From Naegleria gruberi (Eukaryota): a DNA stretch of 64,000 nucleotides. Location of the stretch: NCBI GenBank assembly GCA_000004985.1, contig GG738860.1; one strand, written 5' to 3'. The notes under the pieces were generated by a model. It did no database searches, was not told where the DNA came from, and saw nothing but the letters and a program-made list of their open reading frames with translations. Within the stretch, counting starts at the first letter, position 1. Every line of letters starts with the position of its first letter. Made by a program: the position numbers and the translations under genes. Shown piece by piece: positions 10,944 to 53,327 of this stretch.

Positions 10944-11296
10944 TGTGTTCTTGTGATGACATTTTTTAATGAGTTGGAATTATTTTGAAAATAATCACAT
11001 GAGGAATAAATTGCAGAATTGAACATCAATCTCGAGCCAATAAATTCACAAACAATTAAGAACTCTCCAATTAGACTTTAGATAGTTAAGGGATTGTTGA
11101 CGGAAGAGAATTTCATGTTTTATAGTTAGTATTTATAGAAATTAATAACAATAATAATTTGTACTTCACAACAGGAAAGTTGAAGAAACAATAATTTTCA
11201 AGTGGAAACTTTACAATTTCTTTCATCAAGAGGATTATCCAATCAATCAATTATTGAAATAAAAAAAAATTCAAATCACCCAGATCTTCTTTGAAC

Positions 11297-23945: not shown

Positions 23946-26900
23946 TTATTGGTTGTTTGAAAGAACAAAGTAGCTGTTTCTGCACTTGACAGCAGCCTTT
24001 CTGACCTTTCTCTTCTTATCGTCCAAGCATGCTTCTAAACCTTTAATAATGTCCTTCTTTAAAGGATAAATTTCATAATACTTGTATCCGTTAGTGAGCT
24101 CCAATAATGCCTCAACTGAGAGTATTCTTACTGCTTGGGATTTTTTGAATTTACAGGTATCAAGAAGGATTGGAACAATTGATGACAAGTGGACAGACAT
24201 TTCTTCCTTGGCATCTGATAATAAAGTTAAAGTAGTCTTGATTGCTGCATACAATAAATCTTCCGAATTATTGTCTTGCTCTATCAGAATTTGCCTCATT
24301 TCCAAAAACTTTAAAACAATAGGGAAAATATTCTTAACCTCACTGAGAATAACCTTTGTTGGCACATTATGAATTAAATTAGATAATGCTAAAAGAATGG
24401 AGCCAATGATATGTGGTTGGGTTACTGTGTTAATAGAGTCCATCAACTTTCTCACATTGGTGGCAAAGAAACGTTGTTTGTACAAGACTTGAATAATGGC
24501 ATGATTTTCCTTGTGGATGGATGTTTCATCCTCTCCAATAGCAATCAGAAAACCTTCAGCAACCTTCTTATTAACCTTTGAACTATTATATTCAAAGACG
24601 AGAGAACCACACAACAATGAAGAGTACCTGTCTGCGTGAGGAACATAGGCTCCTCTCATGACCAATCCTTTCAAAATCCACGATACCATCTCAATGTATC
24701 TTTCAGCACTCTCACTATCTCCATTATATACGGTAAGCATTTGTGAAAAAGCATCAAACACTGTGGCATTACAAATTGTAATCAATTGTTGGAATTCAGT
24801 AGAATCCAAAGGCAACTTGTTTAATACTGAACCAACAAGTTGGGCAATACATTTGGTGACCTGGCTAGGTTGTTCTCCCTTCAATGCCATTTGTAATAAA
24901 GAATCCGTCATTGTTATCAAATTACCCATTCCAACAGTTGGTCTGCATGCTATTACAATAGCAGATAAAACTGAAATAAAGTTTTTAAGTCCAGTGCTAG
25001 GAACTGAATTGGCATATTGTAAAACACTATCCAGTACAACTTGTTGTAATTCATTTTCCAAAGATCTACCCAATAAAAGTGTCAAGAAGGAGAAATTTCC
25101 TTGATTGTGATGAACATGTGCACATTCTGAATCACTGCAATCCATTGTATCAGAATCGTCAACCATTTGTGAGGATGAATCAGTAACTGACATTTTAACA
25201 ATTCTTTGAATATAAGAAACCTTATCATGGGCTGGTATCAGTGATACGTCCAACGAGGTAATAGTCTCAAAAACTTTCACTCTCTCGTGCTCATAATGAG
25301 ATTCAGAAATTGGAATGCTTTCAATTCTCTCGAATAGTCTATGTGTAATGGAAGGTGTCATGGATGGACATACCTTTCCAACTGCTGAAATATTAGAAAG
25401 AATACGATTAATATGTTCAGACTTATTTTCACAACCATACAATGCACCGAAAAGTGGTACCAAAATATCTTCGCTAACAATATCTGGAGCATATTTGTAA
25501 ATCCAAGCAATATCCTTAATGACTCTTTCCTTATACTCTTCCAGTGAAGTGGCATGCAGTAAACTGAAAGATTTGTTTTCTTCACCGTACGATTTGAGGA
25601 GTATCCTTGAAACATAGATATCCCTCAACAATGTAGATGGTATTCTGAAAATGGCAATTCTTGAAATAGTTTCGACCATGACTAGGATCATTTCCTTGTC
25701 ATTCTTTGAAAATTCCTCTTCATAAATGGATAAAAATACTGTCTGTACTTGGCTAATAAGATTGAATACAACTTCTGGAAGTTGATTCTCACCTTTTTGT
25801 TCTGCAACAGCTTGCAAGAGTTGTGTTATCATGAGTAAACTTCCATATAACTTATCCTTGGTATCAGATTCACTCAGAGTAGCAACCAATTCAGGCATTA
25901 CTCTATTAAATACCATCATGGAAATTTCAAATGTTGGAACAGCGCAAGCATAAATCATTCTGGCATATTGAGCTGCAAACTTTGGTTCTTTTGACTTGAG
26001 TTCCAATAGGGCAGTACGTAAAATAGCTTCAATATTTGGAATGTCAAATGGTTTGTTACTTGGATCGTTTGGAATGATAACTATTCTTGCAATCTTGGTG
26101 ATGGATTCATAGCACTTCTTCATGACATCCATAGAGTTGGTTTTGACTGATTCAGCCTTGATGTATGACCAAATTTCTGTCAAATATTCTCTACTATTTA
26201 CTTCTCCAAATTTCTCAATGCAATAACACAAATAGTCCAATGTCTCTAACTTGGTATCGACGAGATCACTAGAAAGCTTTTCCAAAAGGAATGGAAATAG
26301 TGTAGGTGCAAAGAATTTGTTGCACCCAAAACAAAGTTTCAAACTCCTAGATAAATCCTCTCTGGTTATTCCTCTTGTATCATTTGCTGGTGGTGTATAG
26401 GTAATTGGGAAATAACAACTAGTAATGTCAAACAAGTCATCAGATACTGCTGATAATATTTTAGAGCTCAGTTCAGAGTCATCAAATATAGCAATAACTT
26501 TAGGAATCAAATTGAAACAGTATAATAAATTGCCAGGATCTCTTTCACCTTCCAATGATTGAATAAAACCATTCAAAAAGTCAATTGTTCGAACAATGGA
26601 AGGAAATCTGTCTGCCAATAGAGAAAACCATTCAAAGCACAAACTTCTAGTTTTTGTTGCATGAGCCACACCTGAAGTACTTCCAATTGATTGAATATTG
26701 ACATTTTCAAAGAATTGAAGAACTACATTAATAGCTTGCTCACTTGAAATGTATGAACTCCACTTTTTAAATAAAGAAAACAAGCATGGTAATAATGTAG
26801 CTAGACAATCAAAATCATAAAATCTATCACCAATAAATCTCAAAAGACTTGCTACCAGCTTGAGTTGTGTTGTTTGTTTTGTTTCATCAGTTTCACTTCC

Positions 26901-27158
26901 TACATTATTTGGTATATTTTCTAATATCAAATCCAAGACAGCATAAGCTGCTCCTCTAATTCGATCATCAGTAGCATGATTCAAGTATTCTCCCAATAAT
27001 TTAATTCCTTCATTGATCGTTAATGTTCCATTCACTACAAATTCTATTAATTTACTTTTAAGAGACTCCTTGTTGGTGTTCGGAAGAGTTGGATTGCACA
27101 AACTATCAATCAGTGAAATCAATTCTTGTTCTCCATTGCTGTTGGATGATGTTTGCAT
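23946..27158 (-). CDS. MMS19: MMS19 (cytosolic Fe-S assembly targeting complex / NER protein) homolog, HEAT/ARM repeats
   Basis: A 1070-aa uninterrupted ORF. ...ERDPGNLLYCFNLIPKV...ITSCYFPITYTPPANDTRGITREDLSRSLK...LFPFLLEKLSSDLVDTKLETLDYL closely parallels human MMS19 (GEKDPRNLLVAFRIV...VTSCYFPIDFTPPPNDPHGIQREDLILSLR...LLPLLIEKVDSEVLSAKLDSLQTL). Confidence 0.75.
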   Translation of the reverse strand: MQTSSNSNGEQELISLIDSLCNPTLPNTNKESLKSKLIEFVVNGTLTINEGIKLLGEYLNHATDDRIRGAAYAVLDLILENIPNNVGSETDETKQTTQLKLVASLLRFIGDRFYDFDCLATLLPCLFSLFKKWSSYISSEQAINVVLQFFENVNIQSIGSTSGVAHATKTRSLCFEWFSLLADRFPSIVRTIDFLNGFIQSLEGERDPGNLLYCFNLIPKVIAIFDDSELSSKILSAVSDDLFDITSCYFPITYTPPANDTRGITREDLSRSLKLCFGCNKFFAPTLFPFLLEKLSSDLVDTKLETLDYLCYCIEKFGEVNSREYLTEIWSYIKAESVKTNSMDVMKKCYESITKIARIVIIPNDPSNKPFDIPNIEAILRTALLELKSKEPKFAAQYARMIYACAVPTFEISMMVFNRVMPELVATLSESDTKDKLYGSLLMITQLLQAVAEQKGENQLPEVVFNLISQVQTVFLSIYEEEFSKNDKEMILVMVETISRIAIFRIPSTLLRDIYVSRILLKSYGEENKSFSLLHATSLEEYKERVIKDIAWIYKYAPDIVSEDILVPLFGALYGCENKSEHINRILSNISAVGKVCPSMTPSITHRLFERIESIPISESHYEHERVKVFETITSLDVSLIPAHDKVSYIQRIVKMSVTDSSSQMVDDSDTMDCSDSECAHVHHNQGNFSFLTLLLGRSLENELQQVVLDSVLQYANSVPSTGLKNFISVLSAIVIACRPTVGMGNLITMTDSLLQMALKGEQPSQVTKCIAQLVGSVLNKLPLDSTEFQQLITICNATVFDAFSQMLTVYNGDSESAERYIEMVSWILKGLVMRGAYVPHADRYSSLLCGSLVFEYNSSKVNKKVAEGFLIAIGEDETSIHKENHAIIQVLYKQRFFATNVRKLMDSINTVTQPHIIGSILLALSNLIHNVPTKVILSEVKNIFPIVLKFLEMRQILIEQDNNSEDLLYAAIKTTLTLLSDAKEEMSVHLSSIVPILLDTCKFKKSQAVRILSVEALLELTNGYKYYEIYPLKKDIIKGLEACLDDKKRKVRKAAVKCRNSYFVLSNNQ

Positions 27159-27286: not shown

Positions 27287-28600
27287 TTAAAAGGTTTTTG
27301 GAGTTAATTCTTCATCATCTTCCTCAGCACTTGCTTTCTTCTTCTTTTTCTTGGAGGCTTTCTTCTTTTTGGTGCTTGTAGATGCTGGGGGTTGAATAGC
27401 AAGAGAAGACCATTCATCACCTTGCACTTCTACAGTTTCGTGAAGTTGCTCTTGAGGTGATGTTGGAGAATCTGTAGGTGCTACAACAGGTGTTGTTATG
27501 TCTGTAGTGATGATGGCTTCACTTTCAGTGGTTATTGATTGTTCTTCTGTTGTTGTTGGAAGGGTTGGAACACTATCTGTTGGATCCATACTTGGTGCTT
27601 CTTGTTGCTCTGGAATTGTTGTGGATGTTAATAATTCATTTGTTGTGCATTGAATAGTTGGAGATGATTCCTCTGTTTTAGCTTCTTCTTGTGGAGTGAC
27701 AGGTTGTTGTGTTTCTTCTTCTTCTTGAATTGCTACTGGTTGTTCTGCTTCTACTTGTTGTTTTGGTTCATCCAGGATGAGTGGAGTAGAATTGGCCACT
27801 GTCAGAATGGTATTGTTCTTACCACTGACACTTCCATTATTACTTGATTGTCCACTCTTATTAGAGACATTGGCAACACTAGCAGTGGTACTCTTATTTG
27901 AAGCAGTGGCAACTTGTGCTTCGGAAGTTGTTGATTTTGATGAAGAAATGGCAGCTACTGTTGAATCTGTTACATTTGAAGGAGGATTTGATGTTGGTTG
28001 TACTGGGGAGGAAACAGCTGGAGTTGTTGCAGTGTGGAGTGATGAAATTGGTTGTTGAGGTTGTGTGGTAATGTTTGAAGGACGTGGTTGTTTTCTTGCT
28101 CCTTGTTGTTGAGTGTTTAGTTGTTGTACAAGTGGCACACTCACAAAATGGTTTTTCAATATCCGAATACTGTCTGAGAATATCCAAGGTGTGTTTGTGT
28201 TTATAGATTTACAGGCTAAGATCGCATAGTCGGCATCATAGATCTTTTCATTTACTTTCTTTGTTTTTAACATGTTCTGTTATTGTACAATAATATTTCC
28301 AATATTTTAATATAATATATAATTATTATTATAAAATAGATTATTGTTCAATAAAAGATTAATCCACAACAAACTTCCTACCTTTTGTTCAACCATCATT
28401 GGTACCTTTGTTCTTACGTGCTCCACAATTCTATACATTCCTACACTCGGTTCATTCATGATGTGATGAATATTCGAACTCCAAATATCACATAAATTTA
28501 AAACTGATTGTTTGGTATCAAGATCAAGAAAACGATCCGTAGAATCAGCAAGGGTTGGCACTGATCCCTTGTAGATTTCTCCTCTTGGTTGTCCTCTCAT
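27287..28600 (-). CDS. hypothetical protein: small N-terminal globular part + long Thr/Ser/Pro/Gln-rich low-complexity tail ending in a poly-Lys/acidic stretch; 2 exons (28600-28382, 28278-27287)
   Basis: MRGQPRGEIYKGSVPTLADSTDRFLDLDTKQSVLNLCDIWSSNIHHIMNEPSVGMYRIVEHVRTKVPMMVEQK|GTAGGA. A 103-nt intron follows, then ag|NMLKTKKVNEKIYDADYAILACKS...KKKKASKKKKKKASAEEDDEELTPKTF*. Confidence 0.45.
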
Positions 28601-28699: not shown

Positions 28700-31399
28700 T
28701 TACAAGATAACACAACCACCTCCTCCACCTCCACTGCTACTGGGTCTTGGGATGTTATTAATTTGAGTTCGGAGGTCTTGATTTTGTCTGGTTAGTTCAT
28801 CGAATTTTCTTTGAAATAATTCCTCCTGATTAGAATATTTGGAATGTATTTGAGCAACTTGGGAAGAGTATTCTTTCTTAATTTCTGTTTCTTTTTTGTC
28901 CCATTCCAATTTGAAATGGTTGAGGTCTTGTTCATGAGCTTGTTGCTGCTCTATTAAGGTATGTAAATGTTTTTCATTTTGCAGTTTCATATCTTCTAGT
29001 TCTTGTAAACGAGTAAGTTGTTCTGATTCGAGTTTGGTAATTTCAAGCCTTTGTTGTTCTTGTTCTAACATTTGTATTACCTTTTCGGATTCGTAATCCT
29101 GTAATTTGGATAAATAGTTAGCACATTCGACAGTTAAATTCTCAATATCTTGCAAAAGGTAAGTTCTAACTTGCTCTCTACCTGGACCTTTGCATTGAGC
29201 TTCGAATTGTTTCATTTGTCTTTCAGCCTCTTTCTCTAAATCTTGAACTGTGGCATCGTGGGTTAAAGCTCTAATAAAGAGTGATATATTTTGTTTCATT
29301 TCGGATCGTACTTGCTCGCACAACCTAACAGATTTGTCCATATTGTTACTTTCTATTTGGGATCTCTCTTTTTTAATTAATTCAAACAACTTGTCAGAAT
29401 ATTCTCTCAATATCTTTTCATCTTTTTCAAACATGGAGTCTCTGTTGAATATGTCAAGAATTGTTGCCCATGTTTTTGTGTGTTGTTTACGGATTTCACA
29501 AATTTCATAAATACTGTTACTGTTCAAATGTTTCTTCATTTCCCTTTCGTATAAATTTACACATTTTTCAATTGTCTTATTGTAGGTATTTTCAATTACC
29601 ATTGTAAATTTGTCCTCAATATTAGGAATCATTCCATGTGTTTTAATGGTTTTCAAATATAATAATATTAAAGTAACATAGCGAGTTCCATCTAATAAAC
29701 CTCCATTCATATTTTGTTTTGGTTTAATATTGGATGGAACGAAACTGTTAACAAAAGTAGACATTTCCTTAATGAAGTTAGCATTCAGTAAATGTTCTAC
29801 GTATGGAATATCAGGAACACAACCTGTAGCAGGTGCTTCCATATGATATGTATCAAAAGTTTCAAAAGATTCAATTACTTTTTTTCTTGAATCATTGTTG
29901 CAAACCTTATTCAAAATAAAGGAGGTAAGAGTCTTAAATTCAGCTGGTATATTCAATTTGAAATCTCTGAACAACCAAATACATCTTGGTTTCATATAAC
30001 TATTGCACTCCGTATTGTTTTGATTGGATGATTTCAATTGAATGTTTTGAGTGAATCTGGTGGTAATTTCAAGTGTCTCCATACTACTTGCTGTAGGACA
30101 AGTTGTGGTATTATAAATAAACAGAGATGATAGTAATACACTTAGAATCATAATGTGATTATCATCAGAAGCGTTAGCAGATGCTGCATCAACACCTTCA
30201 GTGTCTATCAATAAAACTTTCAATTTCTGATTGCCGTAGACCATTTCAATTGGCTCTGACCATATCCAAATTCCAAATGTTTTAGCTTCTACTGTGTGTC
30301 CTAAATGAAAGCTATCTGCAGGAACATTATCACCAACTAATCTACTAAGAGAGTATGATTTACCTTCCCTTGTTCTTCCAGCAAGTACAATTGCTCCAAT
30401 AGGCTCCTTGATATTTTTGATTATGTCAAGAGCTTGTTTCTGGAAGATTAAACCCTCTCTACGTCCGTTCTCTGATAACAGAATGTATTGACCATTGGGA
30501 GTGACCACCATATTTTTAGGAAGTAAGAGAGGAATTGCTTTACCGTGGAGTTTAACAACTTGAAAAGCAGGGTTTTGGGATGAGTTGTCTCCAGCAAATA
30601 CTAAAAGACCCCAATCGCCAAAATAATCCACGTTAACAACAATATTGTTTTCCATACAGAGGTAAATACTTTGATTTGTTGTAATATTTTCTCCAACATG
30701 ACATTGTCCATAAATGGTAAAGGTAGCATAATTTTTTTGATAATAGCCATTCTCAACTTCAAATCTATTAACATTTGGTGAAAGTACTAACTTTCTATGG
30801 ACTCTTGAAGAATAGATAAATACTGTATCTCCAGATTTAACAATACCATCTTTTGATTGATCATTAGCATTTACAAAATACAGTAGATCGTTTTCAGCAG
30901 AAAAGTGAGGGAGAGCTACTAATACATTTTGCTCCTTCAATCCCACATATAGATTGGTATTTGAGTTCATGATGGCTACTGGCTCTTTGTAAAATAAATT
31001 AGTATCTTTACACTTTTCAACAAATGGATCAAATATGCTATCTGAAACTAAATCAGGGTCTGCTTCCATTTCTTTAAGAATATCCTTTGAAGAGTTTGGT
31101 ACTTTGGAATCATTATCTATGGGTTGATCAAAGTCCATGTCAAGATAACTGAATGATTCGGCCAAATCTTCGAGACTATCATTAATAGCTTTTCTTTCTG
31201 AAGTATGAATGAAAGTGTAATATTCAATGGCGTCTTCAAGATGACCCATGCTATTTTGGATGGCTTCAAACACTAAATTCAAATCCGACAAATCCATTTC
31301 TATCATTCTCCAGAATGTTGAGGTGGCTAAATCGCAAGCTTCTTTTCCATACTCCTCAAAGTGTTTCTCGATTTTATCCAATACTGTGTGGTGATCCAT
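28700..31399 (-). CDS. guanylate-binding-protein (GBP)-like large GTPase, paralog 1: ~330-aa N-terminal extension + GBP GTPase domain + coiled coil + Gly run + CaaX (CVIL)
   Basis: AIVLAGRTREGKSYSLSRL (P-loop), EAKTFGIWIW (GBP TKGIW signature), LLIDTEGVD (G3), then ...HIMILSVLLSSLFIYNT. The C-terminus is ...RPSSSGGGGGGCVIL*, which is prenylatable. Confidence 0.8.
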   Translation of the reverse strand: MDHHTVLDKIEKHFEEYGKEACDLATSTFWRMIEMDLSDLNLVFEAIQNSMGHLEDAIEYYTFIHTSERKAINDSLEDLAESFSYLDMDFDQPIDNDSKVPNSSKDILKEMEADPDLVSDSIFDPFVEKCKDTNLFYKEPVAIMNSNTNLYVGLKEQNVLVALPHFSAENDLLYFVNANDQSKDGIVKSGDTVFIYSSRVHRKLVLSPNVNRFEVENGYYQKNYATFTIYGQCHVGENITTNQSIYLCMENNIVVNVDYFGDWGLLVFAGDNSSQNPAFQVVKLHGKAIPLLLPKNMVVTPNGQYILLSENGRREGLIFQKQALDIIKNIKEPIGAIVLAGRTREGKSYSLSRLVGDNVPADSFHLGHTVEAKTFGIWIWSEPIEMVYGNQKLKVLLIDTEGVDAASANASDDNHIMILSVLLSSLFIYNTTTCPTASSMETLEITTRFTQNIQLKSSNQNNTECNSYMKPRCIWLFRDFKLNIPAEFKTLTSFILNKVCNNDSRKKVIESFETFDTYHMEAPATGCVPDIPYVEHLLNANFIKEMSTFVNSFVPSNIKPKQNMNGGLLDGTRYVTLILLYLKTIKTHGMIPNIEDKFTMVIENTYNKTIEKCVNLYEREMKKHLNSNSIYEICEIRKQHTKTWATILDIFNRDSMFEKDEKILREYSDKLFELIKKERSQIESNNMDKSVRLCEQVRSEMKQNISLFIRALTHDATVQDLEKEAERQMKQFEAQCKGPGREQVRTYLLQDIENLTVECANYLSKLQDYESEKVIQMLEQEQQRLEITKLESEQLTRLQELEDMKLQNEKHLHTLIEQQQAHEQDLNHFKLEWDKKETEIKKEYSSQVAQIHSKYSNQEELFQRKFDELTRQNQDLRTQINNIPRPSSSGGGGGGCVIL

Positions 31400-31482
31400 C
31401 TAAATAGTTTTTTGTTGTTGGGTTGAAAAATTCTAAATTGTTTTCTCTTTTAAATTGCAAGCACCATCCGTTTTAATCAACA

Positions 31483-31559
31483 AAACGTGATTGTAGACTC
31501 AAATAAGTAACACTCATCACGTTTTACTAAACGAACAATACAACAGGGCGATCACGTTT
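31483..31559. promoter_or_regulatory. recurrent AAACGTGAT / ATCACGTTT motif cluster in the 5' region of GBP paralog 1
   Basis: AAACGTGAT sits at 31483-31491. Its reverse complement ATCACGTTT sits at 31516-31524 and again at 31551-31559 (GCGATCACGTTTC). The same 9-mer pair recurs as a palindrome upstream of the other two GBP genes. Confidence 0.35.
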
Positions 31560-31625
31560 CAGCATTTTTTAATATTTTTATTATTTTCAATTTTAAATTA
31601 AATGTGTTTAAATAATTATATTTAT

Positions 31626-34154
31626 TTACAAAATATTACAAAAACCAGATGATCTATTATTCATATTTGCAAGACTACTGGTTAGATTAGAAATTTGTCT
31701 TGAACTATCAGCAGATTGTTGTTGTAAAACATTAATCATTTGAGTCATTCTTTGTTCGGATTGAGCTTGCTGTTGAGTAAACATTTGATTCATATTTTGG
31801 AGATTTTCCTTATGTTCAAAGAGGAGTCTTTCTTGGAGTTCTTGCATTTTCTTCTTTTCATCATTTGATGCAGCAAGCATTTCTTTTTGGAATTCTTTGA
31901 TTTTGTCCATTGTTTCCTTGTATAATTCTTCTTTGGCTTTTTCAGATTGTTCGAGGTTTTCTAATTGCTGTCTGACTTTTGCAGTTTCTTGTTGGATGGC
32001 TTGATTTTTCAGTCGTTGTTGAATCAAATCTTCCTTGTAGCTCTTAACTTTCTTCAACTTGTTTTTATCTAATTCACTTCTTTCTTCAAAGAAGGTTTTA
32101 AGTACTTCAGTCTTGGCTGGTCCTTTTGCTCTCTGATCGTATAATTTACCAATCTGATCAAAGACAAGCTCAATATCTTCCATTGACTTGTTCTCAATAT
32201 CATTTTCAAGAGATTCAACTGCTTGTTTGTGAAGAGAGGAGATTATCTCATGACATTGCTTTCTAGATACTTCACGATTCTTCAAAAAGAAAGAGTGAAT
32301 TAAACCTCCAGTGATATTGCCAGACTTATCTGTGGTCATGAATGAATTTGCCAATTTTTCAAACTCCTTCTTGATAACATCTTCATCGGTAAAGACAACA
32401 TTTTGGGAAAATCTTTTTCCCAATGTTGCAATAATGTTTCCATGAATTTCCAATAGTTCAGTATGCTCAATAGGCAAAGGGCATTCAACGATCTTTTCAT
32501 TCATCATGGTAGTGTACAATTCAGGGAGTAGTTGCTCTTCCTTTCTGAGTGATGTTTCAGAAATGAGAGAAATTGGATCAGAGAATGAAGGAACCATTCC
32601 AGGAGTATTCAACTTGAAAATATAATTGAACAATACTACTGGCAAATGATCTATTGTCATTTGAGCCTTTGATCCATGTTTGTTGTGGAAATATTTTGGT
32701 GGTGCATTTTGAACAATTTCATAAACGACCTGTTCCACCTTTTGCAAGAACTCTGGGTTCAGATAATGCCAATAATCTGCAATGGAGGTAAGAATTTGGG
32801 TACTGACATGTGGAGGTGGAATAGTATCATATCTCCTGTTTTGGAAATACATGACGATATCCCTAACAATATTATCCAATTGGTCATCTCCACGTTTAAG
32901 AATTTCTCTTTCCATGTAGCTGTCAAGAGTCTGGCCATATGGAAGTTGTAAAAACACGTCCCTCATTATCCAGTGGAAAAATGGTGAATAGGAGCCTTTC
33001 TCCAAACTAAGGGTTTCAGCAATTTTGGATACAAATGACAAATGGTGCAAGTCAGATCTTTTTGGTGAGCTTTGTGAGTTGTAAACAAAGTAAGATGAAA
33101 TCAAAACTGAAAGAATTAAGAGCAAGTAATCATTATCATTTGAAGCGTCAGTTGAGTTCATGCCTTCACAGTCCAAAACGAGCAACAAAGTCTCTTTTCC
33201 TTCAACAAGAGAGCAAGACATCCAGATTCCTTTGGTTTTAGCAATCACTTCATTACCCAATTCAAATGCAGTAAAAGTTCTGTCATTAATCAATCGACAT
33301 GACAAGAGACTTTTACCTAATCTCATAGGTCCTGATACAGTTACGATACCAATAGGAATTTTGCCAAAATTCTTGACCATTGTTCTTATAGCCTGAACTG
33401 ATTCTCTGACGAGATACAATCTATCAGGAGCTCTACAATTGGAATCAACGAGACCAGTTTGAGGATTGACATATCCTTCACTTCCATTCAATTTCACCAT
33501 TTGACTTGTTTGTGGATCAAAGTAGTGATCTGTAAATTGAACAAGAGGAATACTTTTCATGCCCTCTAGGGGAAAACTTTCGCCTTCATCAAAAAACTCC
33601 TCGTCCTTAACATATTCAGGGATTGATTCAATACTAATTGGTCTAGTATCACCTCTCGTAGTGGCTCTTTTAGTTACTGTTTGAGGAAATGATCTTGGAA
33701 TACTTGGTGAAGGTCGTATATGGGCTCTCCTTTCAAATTGGTCAGAGTGCTGAGAATTGTTACCAACAAAACCTGGAGAAAATTGATACATTGGCTGTGG
33801 ATTATTTTGAAATGGATTCACATTGAAGTATTGGTAAGGAGGAAGATGATTACCAAATGAAACAGGAGTGCTAGCTCCATCAAATGTTGATTCTGGTAAA
33901 TAAGCTTGTCCAGTAACTTCATGTTGTTGAGGATTTCCAAACGCCATGGGATAGAATCCATTGTTTACATTATTGTTCATTTGTGGTTGAGGAATAATAT
34001 AACGTGGAAATGGCATTTGAGAATTGTAATAGGACGGAACACCAACCGAGAAATCACTCATTTGAGAGTTTGGAGTGGTCGTTCTTGGACAATAGTTTGA
34101 ATCTCCCTTATTGCTTTGCATTGTTTTTTTTGTTTTACTTGCAGAAATGATCAT
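31626..34154 (-). CDS. GBP-like large GTPase, paralog 2: Q/N/P-rich prion-like N-terminus + GBP GTPase domain + helical/coiled-coil domain + CaaX (CNIL)
   Basis: IGIVTVSGPMRLGKSLLSCRL (canonical G..R.GKS P-loop), AKTKGIWM, LVLDCEGM, ILSVLISSYFVYNS. The C-terminus is ...NNRSSGFCNIL* (CaaL box; human GBP2 ends CNIL). The first ATG in frame is at 34154 (the ORF track starts at a TTG at 34163). Confidence 0.8.
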   Translation of the reverse strand: MIISASKTKKTMQSNKGDSNYCPRTTTPNSQMSDFSVGVPSYYNSQMPFPRYIIPQPQMNNNVNNGFYPMAFGNPQQHEVTGQAYLPESTFDGASTPVSFGNHLPPYQYFNVNPFQNNPQPMYQFSPGFVGNNSQHSDQFERRAHIRPSPSIPRSFPQTVTKRATTRGDTRPISIESIPEYVKDEEFFDEGESFPLEGMKSIPLVQFTDHYFDPQTSQMVKLNGSEGYVNPQTGLVDSNCRAPDRLYLVRESVQAIRTMVKNFGKIPIGIVTVSGPMRLGKSLLSCRLINDRTFTAFELGNEVIAKTKGIWMSCSLVEGKETLLLVLDCEGMNSTDASNDNDYLLLILSVLISSYFVYNSQSSPKRSDLHHLSFVSKIAETLSLEKGSYSPFFHWIMRDVFLQLPYGQTLDSYMEREILKRGDDQLDNIVRDIVMYFQNRRYDTIPPPHVSTQILTSIADYWHYLNPEFLQKVEQVVYEIVQNAPPKYFHNKHGSKAQMTIDHLPVVLFNYIFKLNTPGMVPSFSDPISLISETSLRKEEQLLPELYTTMMNEKIVECPLPIEHTELLEIHGNIIATLGKRFSQNVVFTDEDVIKKEFEKLANSFMTTDKSGNITGGLIHSFFLKNREVSRKQCHEIISSLHKQAVESLENDIENKSMEDIELVFDQIGKLYDQRAKGPAKTEVLKTFFEERSELDKNKLKKVKSYKEDLIQQRLKNQAIQQETAKVRQQLENLEQSEKAKEELYKETMDKIKEFQKEMLAASNDEKKKMQELQERLLFEHKENLQNMNQMFTQQQAQSEQRMTQMINVLQQQSADSSRQISNLTSSLANMNNRSSGFCNIL

Positions 34155-34228
34155 ATCAGACAAAACGTGTGAGTGTATTATGCTTCATCTCATTACACGT
34201 TTCGATTTCAGGTTTGTAATAATAGAGT

Positions 34229-34248
34229 AAACGTGATCCATCACGTTT
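34229..34248. promoter_or_regulatory. perfect palindrome AAACGTGAT-CC-ATCACGTTT in the 170-bp divergent promoter between GBP paralogs 2 and 3
   Basis: aaacgtgatccatcacgttt: 9-nt arms, 2-nt spacer. Two further half-site variants sit at 34163-34170 (AAACGTGT) and 34195-34202 (ACACGTTT) in the same intergenic region. Confidence 0.4.
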
Positions 34249-34323
34249 GGTATTAAAGTGGTTTCAATTTTAAAGTAATTAAAGCCAGCTCTAGCTTTAC
34301 TATAATGCAATAATTAAAAAACA

Positions 34324-36759
34324 ATGCAATCTGCTAAACCTCTCATATTATTCAAAAGCTCTGTTAATGGAGAATTAAATTCATCTGATTGTGGTGAACC
34401 TTTTCTGGTTCAAGAAACAGTCAATGAATTACTACAATTGACCGATTTACTCAACAAACCAGTCAAGGTAATTGGAGTATGTGGTCCAAAGAGGGCTGCT
34501 AAAACTTCTCTTGCCAATTATCTTGCTCAATCTGTATCATTTGAAGTTGGACATTCAATTGAGTCCAAAACAAAGGGTATTTGGTTGTTTGTAGTTGATA
34601 AACAAGATCATTCCTTAATCATTTTGGATTCTGAGGGTTTTGATGAAGCCTCAACTGCCCAAGATCAACTCTTGTTCATTATCCTGTACTTTTTGTGTTC
34701 CCTCCTTGTTTTCAATACCAGTCATGTGCCAACAAGACAAAATGTTCAAGATTTACAATTTCTAGCCGAATTTAAATCCAAGCTACTTGTATCTGAAGCT
34801 TCAACCCATAACAAATCTGTTCATCCAACCTTCTTGAATTCATTTGGTCCAAACTTTTTATGGTTGATTAGGGATAAATTCTTGAATATTCCCAACGAAT
34901 TTCAAGACATGGAAGATTTCATGTTGAGAGTAGTCCTGGCAAAATCAAATGATGGAAAGGATCATTTGAGAGAAAACATTCTCACCATCTTCAATAGAGT
35001 CTTCTTTGATTTTTTACCTGTACCTGGAGAGCCATCATTCCAGTCAAAATTGGAACATGTTACAATGAATGTTATTTTGGCTAATGTTCCATTAAAAAAA
35101 TTGGTCAATCCTGAAGATATTGGCGATAGAGAAAGTGTTACTTTGGAAACATTCCTTAAATTGGTTGAACTTGTTATTCATCAAATGACTCGAACTCTTA
35201 ACAAGATTCCAGTAATTGACAATATTTTTCATACCATCACCTCCAATAAGGAAATTTACAATTTAAAACGTGCCGTTCAAGTATACGTTGATCACATGAG
35301 CAGGGAACTTGATGATATTGACCCAGTTGACTATGACATATTCACTGAAATAGATAAGCAAGCTGTTGCTAAGGCAACCAAAACCTATTTTGAAGGAATT
35401 CCATCTTCAACTGCAGATTCGAATAGATTACTTTCTGATCTCATGCAAAAGAAGAAGAGTTTCATTGACGACCAAAATGAAAAATCCAAAACATATTGTA
35501 CCTCTCTCATCAAACAATTGTACTCGAAAATGGTTGCTCCCCAAGTAAAACAGTTAATGAATGTCAGAGGTGATATTTCCATGTTGCTTGACACTATTGA
35601 TAAATTCAAGAAGGAATACCATTCGAAAGCTAAAGGAAACATGGCAGTCTCTGTTTTGAATGGCTATTATAATCATCATATTACTAAGGATTTGAATAAT
35701 TTGAGTTCAATAAGAGAGTATGAAGAGAATGTGAAGAATATTAAGGAAGAATTTTCTCACAACTTGGTTCAGTTGAAGGAAGCTGAAAAATCTCTTGTCA
35801 CATTTGAGAACAATATTTCTCAAAATACAAACTATCAACAAATGCTAGAAATGCAAACAAAACTGCAATCTGAACTCTTTAAAGAAGTGATGATTGCTCA
35901 GAGGGAATCACAAGCTAATACTCTAGTCTCCATTGATATGCTCTCAAAGAGTATGCATGACTCTCAGAGACAAGCTCTTAGCATGTATTCTGCAATGCAA
36001 CAATCTCAGCAACAAGCACAAACTCAACAATTAGCTCTCGTTCTAGAGCATAATAGAATTGCAAGTGAGCAACTTAATCAAGCAATGGAAAAAACTACTC
36101 AAGCAGTAATTCAGTATAATGCCAATAGAGAAGATGATTCTTTTTTGGGAAAGGTTGGAAAGATTGGTTTAATAGTTGGTTTAGGTGCTTTGGCACCTGC
36201 ATTGGGTGCCATTCCACATGTTGGATCTGTCCTCTCTGCAACAGCTACAGGAATGAGTGCAGTTATGGGAAAGCAATTGCTCGGACAAGAATATGACCCA
36301 AGACTAATTCAAACCAATACTACTCCTACTCCTCCAAAGGTTAGTCATAGTCCATCAGTCAATCGAGACTCCTTATTATCTCAATTCACAACCAATGCTC
36401 TCTCACAACAAGTGCATCCACAAAATCAACAAGTAACCAACAGCCATCAACCAAGAGCTGTTGTTAGCCAGCTGCCAAGAAAGAATCCTATTGTGCAACC
36501 TCAAAAATCTTCAATCACAGAGTCCACAAAATATGAATTGGGTGGAGAGTTTAAACAAGTTGGCCTCAATGGATCTTATTCCAATACTGTTACAAAAGAT
36601 ATGTTTCCTTATGGCTGTCAATGGGGATGTGGACGTGAAAATGTTTGTTCAAAGCCAGGCCATTCATGTGGAAGACCATCATGCAATGAGGAAAGAAATA
36701 AGAAATCCTATTTCAAAGGCACACTTGGTGTAATGTCAACAACAAGAAACAAGTTGTGA
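34324..36759 (+). CDS. GBP-like large GTPase, paralog 3 (divergent: degenerate P-loop, Gly-rich hydrophobic segment, Cys-rich C-terminus, no CaaX)
   Basis: VKVIGVCGPKRAAKTSLANYL (P-loop with AKT in place of GKS), ESKTKGIWLF, LIILDSEGFD, LFIILYFLCSLLVFNTS. Downstream is a helical domain, then GKVGKIGLIVGLGALAPALGAIPHVGSVLSATATGMSAVMG (glycine-zipper/TM-like) and a Cys-rich tail YGCQWGCGRENVCSKPGHSCGRPSCNEE. Confidence 0.7.
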   Translation: MQSAKPLILFKSSVNGELNSSDCGEPFLVQETVNELLQLTDLLNKPVKVIGVCGPKRAAKTSLANYLAQSVSFEVGHSIESKTKGIWLFVVDKQDHSLIILDSEGFDEASTAQDQLLFIILYFLCSLLVFNTSHVPTRQNVQDLQFLAEFKSKLLVSEASTHNKSVHPTFLNSFGPNFLWLIRDKFLNIPNEFQDMEDFMLRVVLAKSNDGKDHLRENILTIFNRVFFDFLPVPGEPSFQSKLEHVTMNVILANVPLKKLVNPEDIGDRESVTLETFLKLVELVIHQMTRTLNKIPVIDNIFHTITSNKEIYNLKRAVQVYVDHMSRELDDIDPVDYDIFTEIDKQAVAKATKTYFEGIPSSTADSNRLLSDLMQKKKSFIDDQNEKSKTYCTSLIKQLYSKMVAPQVKQLMNVRGDISMLLDTIDKFKKEYHSKAKGNMAVSVLNGYYNHHITKDLNNLSSIREYEENVKNIKEEFSHNLVQLKEAEKSLVTFENNISQNTNYQQMLEMQTKLQSELFKEVMIAQRESQANTLVSIDMLSKSMHDSQRQALSMYSAMQQSQQQAQTQQLALVLEHNRIASEQLNQAMEKTTQAVIQYNANREDDSFLGKVGKIGLIVGLGALAPALGAIPHVGSVLSATATGMSAVMGKQLLGQEYDPRLIQTNTTPTPPKVSHSPSVNRDSLLSQFTTNALSQQVHPQNQQVTNSHQPRAVVSQLPRKNPIVQPQKSSITESTKYELGGEFKQVGLNGSYSNTVTKDMFPYGCQWGCGRENVCSKPGHSCGRPSCNEERNKKSYFKGTLGVMSTTRNKL

Positions 36760-36923: not shown

Positions 36924-38006
36924 CTAGATATTGTCACAAGAAAAGTACAAGTTGAATTCCTTCAACTCTTCCACTAACATTTCGTATTGTTCCTTGCAAT
37001 CTGAATGTGAAAGTACAGTCATACCAGTAATATCCTTCAGCTCAATTTCAGGTTCATTGATTGGCGTGTCTGGATTAAATAATTGAAATATTGTCAAATT
37101 TTGTGGTTTTTGTCTAAAGAATGGCATATTAATAAGATCATTAGAGGGGAGAGAGAATCTTCTTGGTCTCTCTTCATAAACTTGATCCACAACACAATCA
37201 TCATCCAAATTCATTTGGTCAGAACAGTTGGGACTTGTTAAGCCACTACCTCCACTGCTATGATTACTATTTGGTGAAGCATTACTGGCAACAGAAGGAG
37301 TATTACTGCTACCACCTATCATGTGTTTTTTCATGTGTGCAAGAGGAGGAGGAGAACTAATTGCTCTATCTCTTGAACCACTGCTACCATTGAACGAAAA
37401 TGGACTCAAATTACTAGTACCAAAGGCATGGGAGGATGGTGATGGAGCTGTTATGGCCAATGAACGTTGTGTGGTAATGACGATTGGTGGAGAGGATTGT
37501 GTCGATGATTCATGGTGGACATTATTCAGACAAGAGGTGGTATTGTTATTATTATGATGATTACTTTGGCAAGTCGACACTGATGAAGATTGGTATTGTT
37601 GTTTTGGATGTATCGTCGACGATGGAGAGTCATGAATCATGGTTGTACTGGTGGAGAGTTGCTGCTGATGACAATCGCCACCATTATTCAAGTCTAATTG
37701 CTGTGAGGGTGAACCAACATACTCATTAGAAAGTTGATGAAACCCCTGATGATGATGTCCAATGTTCAAACTATGACCCGTCGTCGTTAATGATGATGAT
37801 GAACATATCATTGTTGGTGATGAGAAGTATGGTGAGATGCAATTTGTTGTTCTTCTTGTTGTTGTTGGTTCATTTTTAAAAACTTGTGAGGGAGAACTTT
37901 TATGTATTGATGAAAATGTCGAGTGTTCTCGTTTTGTGTTTTTGACTTGTAAAGGGCAGAATCTGTGTTGTCCTCTCTTCTCTGGTGTGTTGATGATGAT
38001 TCTCAA
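36924..38006 (-). CDS. hypothetical Ser/Thr/His/Asn-rich low-complexity protein
   Basis: A 360-aa ORF, mostly low complexity (SSSS, HHNNNNTT, poly-S/T), ending in a short ordered C-terminus ...LKDITGMTVLSHSDCKEQYEMLVEELKEFNLYFSCDNI*. The true start is uncertain. Confidence 0.35.
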   Translation of the reverse strand: MRIIINTPEKRGQHRFCPLQVKNTKREHSTFSSIHKSSPSQVFKNEPTTTRRTTNCISPYFSSPTMICSSSSLTTTGHSLNIGHHHQGFHQLSNEYVGSPSQQLDLNNGGDCHQQQLSTSTTMIHDSPSSTIHPKQQYQSSSVSTCQSNHHNNNNTTSCLNNVHHESSTQSSPPIVITTQRSLAITAPSPSSHAFGTSNLSPFSFNGSSGSRDRAISSPPPLAHMKKHMIGGSSNTPSVASNASPNSNHSSGGSGLTSPNCSDQMNLDDDCVVDQVYEERPRRFSLPSNDLINMPFFRQKPQNLTIFQLFNPDTPINEPEIELKDITGMTVLSHSDCKEQYEMLVEELKEFNLYFSCDNI

Positions 38007-46741: not shown

Positions 46742-49700
46742 TTAGTGAATAGTTTCATACAACTCCATTGCAGTATCAAGCAATAAAGTATCAAATAGTT
46801 GGTCAGTAATAAAGTTTTTGATCATTTCTTCTTCGAGGTTTGAGGATTTCCATTTTTCTGCAGGTTTGAGGATACCAGGAATTAAAGGAATTGAATGTTT
46901 TGGAAGGTATTCATTTTCCATGTCAGAGAGTGTATGATCAACAAATTGCTCATTCTTGGATAATTCAAAGGATTTAACAAGGCTATCAAACACAAATTGG
47001 AAAGGAGTCAATTGATGAACATTGGTGTAATTATTCTTTTTCTTTCTAATATTTTCTTCTCTTCCAAAGACGTGACCCTTAAATGCAACTCCAACGTGTT
47101 CAGATTGCATGATGGTGTTGTATTCACTCAGGTAAAAATTGAATGATTCCAAGACGAGTTGATTAAAAGCATCTTGATTAGGATTGGATGACTTTTCAAG
47201 AACTGATACGTCAACAAGATTACAGACAGATCCAACCTTGTCTAGATTCTTATCCTTAGAATTGTTGTGAATAATATTTAGAAGATTTTCTACATGTTCC
47301 CTAGTTTGAATAATTTCTCCTGATCTTGGTTTTTCTTTGAGGGAAGGTAATGGACCTAGTTTAGTATTGAAAACATGGTATTCGTCATGATCGTGAATGT
47401 GCATATCTGATAAAGTTTCTCCAGTAAAGTCTTCATCTTCGTCGTGATGATCAACTTGCTGTGGAGATTGTTGCTCGTGTAAGTGAATATCATCATCACC
47501 AATAGTATTTTCGTCTTCAATAGAATCGCTGGAAAAGTCAAAGTCATCTTGCTCCAATACTTCTTCTTCCACGTGGAACTTTTCAGTTTGAGGTGATGGT
47601 TCTGAGTCAACCTTGTTTTCGTCGAAATCTTCAAAATCAGAACTAATATCATCATCAAAATCTGATTGAGCAAGCATTTGTTGCTGTTTAGCATCTTCTT
47701 CGTCATTGAGCTTCTTTAACCTAAGTTCTTCTTGTCTTTGCTCTTCCTTTCTGAGTTCTTCTTGACGTAACTGTTCCTTTCTCAATTCTTCTTGTCTTTG
47801 TTCTTCTCTTCTGACTTCCTCCAACTCTTGTTGTTTTTGTTGTTCCTTTCTTAATTCCTCTCTTCTGAGCTCTTCTTGACGTAATTGCTCTTTTCTTAAC
47901 TCCTCTTGTCTCAGATCTTCCTTTCTTTGTTCTTCTCTTCTGATTTCGTCTTGACGAGTTAATTCCTTTTGGTTTTGTTCTTGTTGCTTCAACTCGTCTT
48001 TCAATTTGAGGATTCTGAGCTCTTCCTTTCTCAATTCTTCCTTTCTGAGCTCTTCCTTTTCGATTTCAGCTTGTTTACGTTTCTCCTGTCTAATACGTTC
48101 GTCCTCAAGCTCTTTGTTCCTTAATTGCTCCTTTCGTTTGATTTCCTCTTGTTGCTCTTGCAGCATTTCCATCTTTTTTCTAATTTCTTCTTCAGATGCT
48201 TCTTGCTTTTTGAGTGAATTCTTCAACAATTCTTCTTGCTTTTCCTTCTCCCTTCTGAGTCTTTCTTCTTCTTTTCTCAACTCTTCCTTTTTCTTTGAAT
48301 AGGTAAGTCTTTCTTCTTCAAGTCTTGCCTTTTCTTCATCGAGTTGTTGCATTTTGAGTTTTTCTTGCTCTACTCTGTCTTGTTGTCTTCTTTGGAACTC
48401 TTGCTTTTCTTGTTCTAATTGCTCCTGTTCCTCATGAAGTCTTTCGAGCTCTTCCCTAATGCTATCCTCTCTTTCAGAATCTTGTAAGAGTAACTCCCTC
48501 TTGAGCTTTTCTTGCTTCTCTTGTTCCTTCTTGAGAAGAATTTCCTTTTGTTTTACAAGCTCTTGTTCCATCTTTTTGGCAAGCTCTTCTTCCTTTCTTT
48601 TGGCAACTTCCATCTCAATGTGTTTACGAAGATTATCTTCCTGTTCCAATTGATTTCTTCTCATTTCATCCTCATGTTCTTTGGCAAGACGTTGTTGATC
48701 TTCGAGCTGCTGTTTACTTTCATTGAGCTTGTTTTCAAGTTGCTTTCTGAGAGACTTTTCTTTTTCGAGCATTTCTCTCAACCTATTCTCTTCTTGAATC
48801 TTTCTTTCAGTCTCTTCTTCGAGTTCTCTTCTCTTTCTTTCTTCATTGAGCAATTTTTGTCTAAGAACCTCTTCCTGACCCTTGAGTTTAACAAGATTTT
48901 GTTCTTCTTCTAACTTTTTTCTGAGAGCTTCTTCCATCTTTTTAGAAAGCTCCTCTTCCTTTCTTTTGGCAATGAGCTCAATTTGTTTTCTAATTATTTC
49001 TTCCTGCTCGGCCTGTCTTCTCTTTAATTCTTCTTCTTGTTCCTTCAAGAGCCTTTGTTGTTCCTCTTTATGTTTGAGAAGTTGTTGTTCCATCTTTCTG
49101 TCCATCTCTTCCTCTTTTCTTTTAGCGACTTCCATTTCGATCTGGACACGAAGCTTTTGCTCTTGGTCGAGTTGCTTTCTCTTAAGGTCATCTTCTTGCT
49201 CACGAACAATACGTTGTTGCTCTTCAAGTTGCTGCTTACTCTTGCTGAGCTTGTCTTCAAGTTGCTTACGTAAAAGTTTTTCTCTTTCAAGCATATCCTT
49301 AAGCTGAGACTCTTCTTCAAAGAACTTTTCAGTTGTTTGTTCGAGTTCCCTCCTCTTTCTCTCTTCAGATAAGAGCTTGTGTCTCAAAGCTTGCTCTTCA
49401 TTCTTGAGTTTGAGAATATTATTTTCTTCCTCCAACTTTCTCTTCAACTCTTCTTCCATATTTCTGGAGAGTTCATCGTCCTTTCTCTTAGAGACAAGTT
49501 CAAGCTGCTTACGAATAATGTCTTCTTGTTCAATATGTCTTCTTCTCATTTCCTCTTCTTGTTCTCTAGCAAGACGTTGTTGTTCTTCGAGTTGTTGTTT
49601 ACTCCTACTGAGCTTATCTTCAAGTTGCTTACGTAAAAGTTTTTCCTTCTCAAGCATGTCTTTCAATTGCTTATCCTCTTCAGATAGCTTTTCATTGGAA

Positions 49701-52003: not shown

Positions 52004-52744
52004 TTACATGCATAATGTAAAATACAATAATACTAGTAAGGTGATCAAAGTTGTAGTACCTCCTGATAGACTTGAATGTAGTGTCATTGAATTGCCTGTA
52101 CACATGACAGAATCTGCCATATCAAAACTCTTCCAAGAACCTTGATAAACTCTATTAATTCCATTACTTGTTGATAGACATCTAAAATCTATCAACTCTC
52201 TCGAGTTACAACTTGCATAATAATTCTCACACGAGGACATGCAGAGATTGTAAATTTGTGTTGACTCGTCCCTACTCACATCACATAGTGGAAAGAAGTG
52301 TTGACAAATGTAACGTCTTGCTGCATTGTAGCACTGACTTTTTTGAAATAATCCCTTGTGATAGACTTCCGAGTTGAATGATAATAATGCCTGTCTATCA
52401 CTCAATTTTAAATAATCAACAATTGTCAAGTTGTAAGAGTCAAAGGTTGATGAAGAATTGGTGAGTGTTAAATTATTAGATATGCAAATTCGTATCGATT
52501 CGTTGAGTGTCATGTACTCGTTGATAGTTTCCAAGCAGAAAGTTTCGTTTGCATTCGTTTGCGAAATAAAATCATAGAGAAGAGGAGAAGATAGAGAGGT
52601 ACATTCACCCGAACAAGATCCATAGAAATTGTTATTGTTTAATGTTTCCGATTCGTTCATAAGTGTGAACACCAAGAGAATGACAAGAAAGAATGAAGGA
52701 TTTTTCATGTTGTTGGAATTTTTTTTGATTTGTGAATTGGCCAA
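52004..52744 (-). CDS. secreted/GPI-anchored-type Cys-rich protein (signal peptide, many N-glyc sequons, C-terminal hydrophobic tail); possible Frizzled-like CRD
   Basis: The N-terminus MKNPSFFLVILLVFTLMNES is a signal-peptide candidate. There are 14 Cys with spacing ...CQHFFPLC...LCMSSCENYYASC...C..., multiple N.T/N.S sequons, and a C-terminal GGTTTLITLLVLLYFTLCM* (GPI-signal-like). Confidence 0.5.
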   Translation of the reverse strand: MANSQIKKNSNNMKNPSFFLVILLVFTLMNESETLNNNNFYGSCSGECTSLSSPLLYDFISQTNANETFCLETINEYMTLNESIRICISNNLTLTNSSSTFDSYNLTIVDYLKLSDRQALLSFNSEVYHKGLFQKSQCYNAARRYICQHFFPLCDVSRDESTQIYNLCMSSCENYYASCNSRELIDFRCLSTSNGINRVYQGSWKSFDMADSVMCTGNSMTLHSSLSGGTTTLITLLVLLYFTLCM

Positions 52745-52812
52745 TAATTATAATCACCTCAATTTTTGTCTCGAAACGAGGATGTGCTTGCAATTTAAAT
52801 TTTAAAAAAAAA

Positions 52813-53327
52813 ATGATGTCAGCAACAGGAAATCATCATGAACAACAAAATAATGAACAACAGCAGTCGGAAAGAGCCAACCGTAAAAAGATTTTAGATG
52901 CTGTCTTGGAGTATTATTCAGAGGCTTTTTCTATAGAAAAAAGTAACGAGCAAATTAAAAACAAAATGGACCTTTGTTTACCGAAACATGTCTGTAAGCG
53001 TATTTCATTTAAATTATTGAAAACAGGAGCAAATATAAATTCCATTAGTGAGAAAGTTTTGAAAATTCCAAAAAAAGAAAAGAAAATTGAAAATCATGAA
53101 GAAGTGCTTCTTTCCCAAGCAGACTTGGATGATTTTAATAAGGAACCAACACAACATGACACTGAGGAGAAAAAAAAACAAATAATGGAGTATACTGAGC
53201 AGTATGTTCAGAAAAAGTCACAGAGTGTGCTTTCACAGATGGATAGTATTACTTTTCCCAAAAAGATTAGAGCAAGACTTGATCAAATTTCTAATATTAT
53301 TGCTAAAACCTGTATTCATCTAGAAGA
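52813..53327 (+). CDS. 5' part of a hypothetical gene running into the 1484-N gap
   Basis: ATG at 52813: MMSATGNHHEQQNNEQQQSERANRKKILDAVLEYYSEAF... is open to the gap edge. No family recognised. Confidence 0.4.

Follow-up and report, generated by a model that had tools for sequence, protein, structure and literature searches.

The 64,000-nucleotide stretch of the Naegleria gruberi NEG-M genome analysed here (contig GG738860.1; hereafter the window) carries at positions 28700-36759 a cluster of three large-GTPase genes, which, judged by sequence, make up an ancient and conserved three-gene module of bona fide guanylate-binding proteins (GBPs). The three open reading frames (ORFs), named GBP-A, GBP-B and GBP-C in this analysis, span 8,060 bp free of N, and all are intact and intronless. 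The reading that we favour, with about even confidence, is that of a conserved, co-regulated and membrane-targeted GBP module most likely acting in defence. In animals, GBPs hold a central place among the effectors of cell-autonomous immunity, and Naegleria naturally hosts Legionella, chlamydiae and giant viruses. N. gruberi is a unicellular amoeboflagellate, in agreement with a first-pass annotation made from the letters, which had supposed a unicellular or early-branching flagellate. What this analysis adds is the trio as a conserved unit, promoter motifs specific to the locus, the fusion at the N-terminus of GBP-A and a GBP-B gene that seems to be unannotated.

GBP-A (28700-31399, minus strand; 899 aa) is identical to EFC46141.1 / XP_002678885, and GBP-C (34324-36759, plus strand; 811 aa) to EFC46010.1 / XP_002678754, both deposited as 'predicted protein'. 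GBP-B (31626-34154, minus strand) encodes 842 aa when counted from the first ATG at 34154, and its frame in the ORF list is 31626-34163. GBP-B and GBP-A are aligned in tandem, separated by 226 bp, while GBP-B and GBP-C are divergent, with start codons 169 bp apart, and the head-to-tail and head-to-head order within 8 kb described at first pass thus corresponds to the coordinates of the ORFs.

Family assignment and catalytic motifs

All three proteins matched the Pfam profile PF02263 (GBP), with E-values of 9.5e-32 for GBP-A, 7e-22 for GBP-B and 1.1e-19 for GBP-C and scores of 110.6, 78.3 and 71.0 bits, respectively, against a cut-off of 21.1. The profile of the helical stalk, PF02841 (GBP_C), was detected above its curated cut-off of 24.3 in GBP-A (39.0 bits, 8.3e-10) and GBP-C (37.8 bits, 1.9e-9). 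For GBP-B the GBP_C score was 21.6 bits, under this cut-off, and that of the GBP-B ortholog described below was 43.8 bits; the alignment of GBP-B to human GBP1 (hGBP1) extends to hGBP1 residue 565. Among PDB sequences the best matches were human GBP1/2/5 (5e-31 for A, 7.8e-17 for B and 1.8e-19 for C), and residues 311-880 of GBP-A align with residues 18-583 of hGBP1 (1dg3; E 5e-30), covering a GBP in full length. The three GBP-like large GTPases proposed at first pass were thus borne out, both by the two profiles and by the matches to human GBP1/2/5.

The same annotation had named placement with atlastin, Sey1 and RHD3, the GTPases that mediate endoplasmic reticulum (ER) fusion, as the result that would speak against GBPs. 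These proteins share the GB1/RHD3-type G-domain superfamily, PF02263 covers atlastins too, and GBP-C has a C-terminal hydrophobic segment, all of which would fit ER-fusion GTPases misread as GBPs. The profile searches refute this explanation, and we give it next to no probability. Atlastin-1 matched GBP-A at 2e-5 and GBP-B at 1.5e-5 over part of the G domain (~95-150 residues), and GBP-C gave no atlastin match; compared with 1e-17 to 1e-31 for GBP1/2/5, the level of 1e-5 is weaker by 12 to 26 orders of magnitude. The RHD3/Sey1 profile (PF05879) matched none of A, B and C at E<=0.1. Unlike the three proteins, the atlastin type has no GBP_C-type stalk but a short middle domain of bundled helices, after which come two adjacent transmembrane (TM) helices, whereas GBP-A and GBP-B have no hydrophobic segment and end in a CaaX box only. 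Since the matches to PDB sequences favour human GBPs far above atlastin, all three are, on sequence criteria, GBPs proper, belonging to the GBP branch of the dynamin superfamily and not to atlastin/Sey1/RHD3. The family assignment itself is not new, because a public database already holds precomputed PF02263 and PF02841 hits for GBP-A.

The catalytic motifs agree with this assignment. The P-loops are GRTREGKS in A and GPMRLGKS in B, both canonical, and GPKRAAKT in C; switch I reads AKTFGIW, AKTKGIW and SKTKGIW, G3 reads DTEG, DCEG and DSEG, and G4 reads LFRD, IMRD and LIRD in A, B and C, respectively. In an alignment of A, B, C and the ortholog with mammalian, plant and oomycete GBPs, the P-loop G/R/K, the switch-I T-G-W, the D-E-G and the R-D columns are invariant, and the only exception among the catalytic positions is GBP-C, in which Ala replaces the Gly preceding Lys. 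In hGBP1 these columns correspond to the Arg finger R48, K51, T75, DTEG and the guanine-specificity motif TLRD. Of the motif strings reported at first pass, (S/T).TKGIW is exact in GBP-C, while A and B start with Ala and A has F for K; the 'ILSVL.SS' block is found in A and B, shifted by one residue, and differs in C, which has IILYFLCSLLVFN.

The trio shares with human GBP1/2/5 the large-GTPase (LG) domain with the GxxRxGKS Arg finger, switch-I Thr, DxEG and xxRD, the long helical stalk, the C-terminal CaaX box and the presence of several paralogs in one cluster. In contrast, N. gruberi has no interferon system, no polybasic patch precedes the CaaX boxes, GBP-A has a 310-aa N-terminal extension and GBP-B a 176-aa disordered N-terminus, and the Naegleria paralogs, with identities of about 20-25%, are ancient rather than recently duplicated. 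Plant GBPLs likewise combine a GBP LG domain with GBP_C, and plant sequences are among the best external matches; they differ in having long C-terminal extensions and no CaaX in the sequences compared, and they fall outside the Naegleria clade in the tree described below.

Orthologs, age of the duplications and selection

Within a database of 5.8 billion clusters, the only close full-length relative of GBP-A was P0005, with 33% identity over 99% coverage, the N-terminal extension included. The gene for P0005 lies on the metagenomic contig L001 (10 kb; also L002, JGI sample) among three adjacent GBP genes. The other two are the orthologs of GBP-C (L001:3196-5343, minus strand; E 8e-72, 26% identity) and of GBP-B (L001:5595-8201, plus strand; E 4e-159, 38% identity over 672 aa). 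As in the window, the B and C genes form a divergent pair, but the GBP-A ortholog lies on the other side of it. The flanking genes on L001/L002 (VWA-Vint and TPR) are unlike those of the window, and the GC content of L001 is 39% vs 33% for the window.

The ortholog pairs scored 526, 238 and 475 bits, and the paralogs among themselves 86-176 bits by BLASTP, no better than their scores to external GBPs (90-163 bits); global identity between A, B and C is about 20-21% and local identity about 24-31%. Neighbour-joining on 552 alignment columns from 27 GBPs, with 200 bootstraps, no outgroup and limited taxon sampling, joined GBP-A, GBP-B and GBP-C to their L001 counterparts with support of 99.5%, 97.5% and 98.5%, respectively, and recovered a clade of B and C with 99.5%. 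A, B, C and one further protein, P0065, were set apart from all animal, plant, oomycete and other GBPs with 96% support. GBP-C forms the longest branch of the tree. Because of the bootstrap support for the orthologous pairs and for the (B, C) clade, the duplications that gave rise to the trio are, as far as sequence can tell, lineage-specific and older than the split from the L001 organism.

P0065 is a lone 658-aa GBP with the C-terminus CTIF, encoded on contigs L004 / L005 of 25-27% GC; as a guess, its host may be another low-GC heterolobosean, Willaertia-like.

Selection was estimated from one strain pair and partial sequence, using L003 (ENA ERZ929261), which comes from a close N. gruberi-like strain and is 96.6% identical over window positions 33733-35637. 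In 437 codons of GBP-C, 14 synonymous and 8 non-synonymous changes were counted, giving a per-site ratio of non-synonymous to synonymous changes (pN/pS) of 0.15, which points to purifying selection on GBP-C between these strains. The disordered N-terminus of GBP-B showed 2 synonymous and 7 non-synonymous changes (pN/pS 0.88). L003 also carries a 25-nt deletion at window positions 35151-35175, which shifts the frame of GBP-C after 279 aa; the deletion is an error of assembly or else a null allele that occurs in nature.

These data bear on the first-pass interpretation of the cluster as a local tandem expansion typical of arms-race families, that is, a recently expanding, fast-diversifying array shaped by host-pathogen conflict in the manner of vertebrate GBP/IRG clusters. 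The genes are adjacent and diversified at their termini, orthologs are merely 26-38% identical, the disordered N-terminus of GBP-B is near-neutral on its 9 changes, and the deletion in L003 could represent a presence/absence-type polymorphism. Such an array is nevertheless largely refuted and very improbable: the distance between paralogs about equals that to plant or animal GBPs, the orthologs are 1:1 and syntenic, all duplications appear older than the split from the L001 organism, the B/C pair keeps its copy number and its order, and the GTPase and stalk of GBP-C appear to be under purifying selection. A tblastn search with nine GBPs detected no additional GBP-like sequence in the rest of the 64 kb. 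Word-indexed homolog searches returned 2 hits for GBP-B and 1 for GBP-C and missed GBP-C's own cluster, and are thus uninformative on other N. gruberi paralogs and on N. fowleri orthologs.

Promoter elements of the trio

The promoters of the trio carry a repeated motif, AAACGTG(A/T), often in the form AAACGTGAT. In the GBP-A promoter (31400..31625), three AAACGTGA sites are located at 31483-31490 (plus strand), 31517-31524 (minus) and 31552-31559 (minus), preceding the ATG by 84, 119 and 154 nt at regular intervals of 35 nt. The divergent GBP-B/GBP-C promoter (34155..34323, 169 bp) contains AAACGTG at 34163 (plus), 34196 (minus), 34229 (plus) and 34242 (minus), the sites at 34229 and 34242 together forming the palindrome AAACGTGATCCATCACGTTT. 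The close strain L003 has the same four sites without any change.

The motif is concentrated at this locus. The 64 kb contain 10 AAACGTG sites, of which 7 fall within the 395 bp of the GBP promoters, against an expectation of about 0.06 (binomial P about 4e-14), and the GBP promoters hold 5 of the 6 AAACGTGA sites, a total of 6 being reached in none of 100 shuffles of the window. No other promoter of the window carries the AAACGTG(A/T) motif.

The orthologous trio on L001 has a repeated element of its own, TGTGATAA. It occurs 6 times in the 10 kb, and all 6 copies lie in GBP promoters (binomial P about 8e-8; none of 200 shuffles reached six): two, at 330-360, are located upstream of the A ortholog and four, at 5365-5560, in the divergent C/B intergenic region. 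In the N. gruberi window, TGTGATAA is not enriched. A variant of the A-ortholog locus was found on another contig of the same metagenome, L006, of which positions 4700-5060 correspond to 110-480 of L001 with a promoter about 88% identical; the neighbours on L006 include TPR, malonyl-CoA decarboxylase and Ras-like genes.

Because each gene of the trio has a locus-specific repeated element in both organisms, the promoter sequences provide good evidence for coordinated transcription of the trio, and they suggest a dedicated regulator. That AAACGTGAT and TGTGATAA descend from one element is a guess from their common GTGAT core.

Protein architecture, possible role and surroundings of the locus

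In addition to the GTPase and stalk, the paralogs each carry a different terminal elaboration, in agreement with the first-pass description: an extension in GBP-A, a disordered N-terminus in GBP-B and a hydrophobic segment in GBP-C. Pfam matched nothing on the GBP-B N-terminus, the GBP-C tail or the tail of the C ortholog. The two prenylation boxes predicted at first pass, CVIL in A and CNIL in B, are indeed encoded by the last four codons, and the orthologs end in CaaX boxes as well.

GBP-A is composed of a complete GBP preceded by an N-terminal extension of ~310 aa, which Pfam does not recognise. From the N-terminus, its predicted parts, all on the minus strand, are a UBA-like or SOUBA-like four-helix domain (residues 1-87, 31139..31399; confident for 1-66), a beta-rich orphan region (residues about 135-300, 30500..30997; AlphaFold2 (AF2) predicted local distance difference test (pLDDT) <50), the large-GTPase core with GRTREGKS, AKTFGIW, DTEG and LFRD (residues 317-493, 29921..30451), the helical GBP_C domain assigned by Pfam (residues 568-860, 28820..29698) and the CaaX box CVIL (28703..28714; the ortholog terminus is CTIQ). 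A CaaX box in which X is L is of the geranylgeranyl type. In an exhaustive HMMER profile search of the N-terminal region against 1.84e9 representatives, only GBP-A itself, the ortholog fragment P0068 and the bacterial cohesin/dockerin repeat protein P0069 were detected; P0069 (E 7e-4) was judged spurious.

The AF2 model of residues 1-130, which was built from 3 sequences, reached pLDDT >90 over the four-helix unit 1-66. UBA and CUE domains dominate its Foldseek list at non-significant E-values, and no UBA or CUE sequence profile matched the N-terminus at E<=10. The MGF loop known from UBA domains and the UBAP1 SOUBA is not retained (MDL / DGI). Based on the model, a UBA-like fold is a reasonable lead, and binding of ubiquitin by this region would be speculation. 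For the entire N-terminal 320 aa, the AF2 model had a pLDDT of 42, and its Foldseek matches (BamB, WD40) were discarded as meaningless; a beta-trefoil, at first considered for residues 135-300, was dropped.

GBP-B begins with a disordered region (residues 1-176, 33627..34154, minus strand) that is rich in P, S, N and Q, contains aromatics and is low in charge; in the ortholog its composition is kept and its sequence is not. Disordered regions drive condensates in plant GBPL defence circuits, a possible parallel to this N-terminus. The CaaX box CNIL (31629..31640, minus strand; CIIL in the ortholog) is shared with human GBP2. The public N. gruberi protein set appears to lack a model for GBP-B: the UniProt entries D2VAU3/4/5 correspond to MMS19, GBP-A and GBP-C and skip GBP-B, none of its 8 ATG-start versions was found in a collection of 15 billion proteins, and a word-indexed search with GBP-B gave no N. 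gruberi match, though such a search can miss self-hits. Scans of metagenomes with GBP-B patterns gave no confirmed locus.

GBP-C has no CaaX box. Instead, a hydrophobic segment follows its GBP_C stalk of about 280 aa (residues 614-649, 36163..36270, plus strand), in which 36 residues are free of D, E, K, R, Q and N. The segment is rich in Gly and Ala and has internal prolines, with a Kyte-Doolittle 19-mer maximum of 1.72; the equivalent segment of the ortholog (644-669) reaches 1.71, and the two align. For A, B and their orthologs, the Kyte-Doolittle maximum over the C-terminal 40% of the protein is <=1.0, and no comparable segment was found there. Residues 614-649 are thus a candidate membrane anchor or hairpin.

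A comparable arrangement is known from the GBP of Dictyostelium discoideum (DDB_G0281639), which has a C-terminal TM segment and no CaaX, is anchored in the ER with its GTPase domain in the cytosol, is located at Legionella-vacuole/ER contact sites and restricts L. pneumophila (PMC12040241). Both proteins are amoebal and share the conserved P-loop and the extended helical domain, with a hydrophobic anchor replacing the CaaX box. In contrast to the single gene of Dictyostelium, the Naegleria trio has both anchoring modes, as predicted; GBP-C lacks a signal-peptide-like N-terminus, and its Gly/Ala/Pro-rich segment is borderline as a classic TM helix. In sequence features, GBP-C thus comes close to the Dictyostelium type, and A and B to that of the prenylated hGBP1/2/5.

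The P-loop of GBP-C (GPKRAAKT, 34483..34506, plus strand) has Ala in place of the Gly of GK[ST] and departs from GxxRxGK[ST]. Together with the long branch of GBP-C in the tree, the frameshifting deletion in the wild allele and a lineage-specific low-complexity tail beyond residue 660, this could mean that GBP-C is degenerating or catalytically dead, so that the module would consist of two working GBPs and a relic. We consider a relic improbable. The 811-aa frame is unbroken, the pN/pS of 0.15 draws on 22 substitutions, the remaining catalytic residues are all kept, and the ortholog retains a canonical P-loop (GLKRCGKS) and the same hydrophobic segment; a regulatory pseudo-GTPase would, furthermore, still belong to the module.

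The favoured reading, a co-regulated and membrane-targeted module acting in defence, can be put as a working mechanism. A single dedicated transcription factor would turn on all three genes together. The products would undergo GTP-dependent LG-domain dimerisation or polymerisation, as in hGBP1, on a cytosol-facing endomembrane: GBP-A would reach the membrane by geranylgeranylation of CVIL and would add its N-terminal UBA-like reader and orphan beta-rich domain, GBP-B would do so by geranylgeranylation of CNIL, with its Q/N/P-rich disordered region possibly driving multivalent clustering, and GBP-C would insert by its C-terminal hydrophobic anchor, as in the ER-anchored Dictyostelium GBP. The three proteins would cooperate. 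By analogy with animal GBPs and with the Legionella-restricting Dictyostelium GBP, we infer a possible immune role of the trio, and its likeliest job in a bacterivorous amoeba would be surveillance or restriction of phagosome-derived or pathogen-containing vacuoles.

Several observations weigh against this reading. A housekeeping membrane function would explain equally well why the orthologs stay 1:1, why selection appears purifying and why recent copies are absent. The promoter motifs differ between the two species (AAACGTGAT vs TGTGATAA), so that a regulator common to both would be conjecture; of the two TGTGATAA copies upstream of the A ortholog, the variant locus on L006 keeps only one. 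Given the Ala for Gly in its P-loop and the frameshifting deletion in L003, GBP-C may be catalytically impaired or dispensable. The tree is a neighbour-joining tree of 27 taxa without outgroup, the UBA-like call comes from a 3-sequence AF2 model with non-significant Foldseek scores and no Pfam UBA match, and hetero-oligomerisation of the three proteins is pure inference. A literature search found no paper on Naegleria GBPs or citing these accessions, nor did it turn up expression or infection data for the three genes.

Housekeeping proper would mean that the three are endomembrane GTPases that remodel or tether ER, phagosomal or contractile-vacuole membranes, their co-regulation reflecting a developmental or feeding programme, with no dedicated immune role. 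This is possible, though we think it doubtful. Consistent with it are the long retention of 1:1 orthologs and the lack of recent duplicates in the 64 kb, the pN/pS of 0.15 for GBP-C and the housekeeping nature of the neighbouring genes. Plant GBP-proper proteins, on the other hand, act in defence. The identities of the orthologs are low (26-38%), and a predicted UBA-like reader domain would fit target recognition more than bulk membrane work. The Dictyostelium GBP bears on both sides: it is ER-resident and also influences cell migration (PMC12040241), and yet GBP-proper proteins have been defensive in every tested lineage, in animals and also in Dictyostelium (PMC12040241).

A more specific form of the favoured reading, to which we assign a low probability, is a three-component, co-induced GBP defence machine older than the split of two heterolobosean-like lineages, in which GBP-A, by means of its UBA-like domain, would recognise ubiquitin or a different tag on vacuoles that are damaged or contain pathogens, prenylated GBP-B would amplify the coat via its prion-like region and membrane-embedded GBP-C would serve as platform. 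If true, ubiquitin-guided GBP targeting would be built into one polypeptide of a discoban protist, and cell-autonomous immunity based on GBPs would have been invented early in eukaryotes, with a cis-regulatory programme of its own. In mammals, ubiquitin-guided GBP targeting requires separate adaptors.

To our knowledge, the single Dictyostelium GBP is the sole GBP tested outside animals and plants, and we know of no other protist GBP shown to be antimicrobial. Dictyostelium belongs to Amoebozoa and Naegleria to Discoba, two different supergroups, and the trio would offer a second, phylogenetically distant protist system for the ancestral job of GBPs, one that unites prenyl-anchored and hydrophobically anchored members, as predicted, with a possible ubiquitin-reader fusion. 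The concrete yield is a short promoter motif with which the regulon and its regulator could be sought, and a seemingly unannotated gene for the N. gruberi gene set. At present, the three are family members with interesting architecture and no demonstrated new mechanism.

The genes flanking the trio in the window encode MMS19, MetRS, an OYE oxidoreductase, thioredoxin and COG7. MMS19 (23946-27158, annotated) is the upstream neighbour, and the public names of the GBP-A, GBP-C and MMS19 entries are only 'predicted protein' or 'uncharacterized protein'. The trio lies between two putative genes, at 27287-28273 (minus strand; 328 aa) and 36924-38006 (minus strand; 360 aa), both S/T/P/Q/N-rich, of low complexity and without Pfam match; the former seems to be unannotated as well.

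Assembly gaps (N runs) are present at window positions 1395-1444, 10453-10943 and 53328-54811. Blocks of low GC at 10-12 kb and 52-56 kb are caused by these runs and were rejected as biology, and the long 'ORFs' 52732-55584 and 53316-54824 are further artefacts of the runs, as are, probably, 9968-11029 and 10408-10956. The 1605-aa ORF at 46742-51559 (minus strand), in a region of strong strand skew (AT skew -0.48 and GC skew -0.28 at 48-50 kb), probably encodes a repetitive or low-complexity protein.

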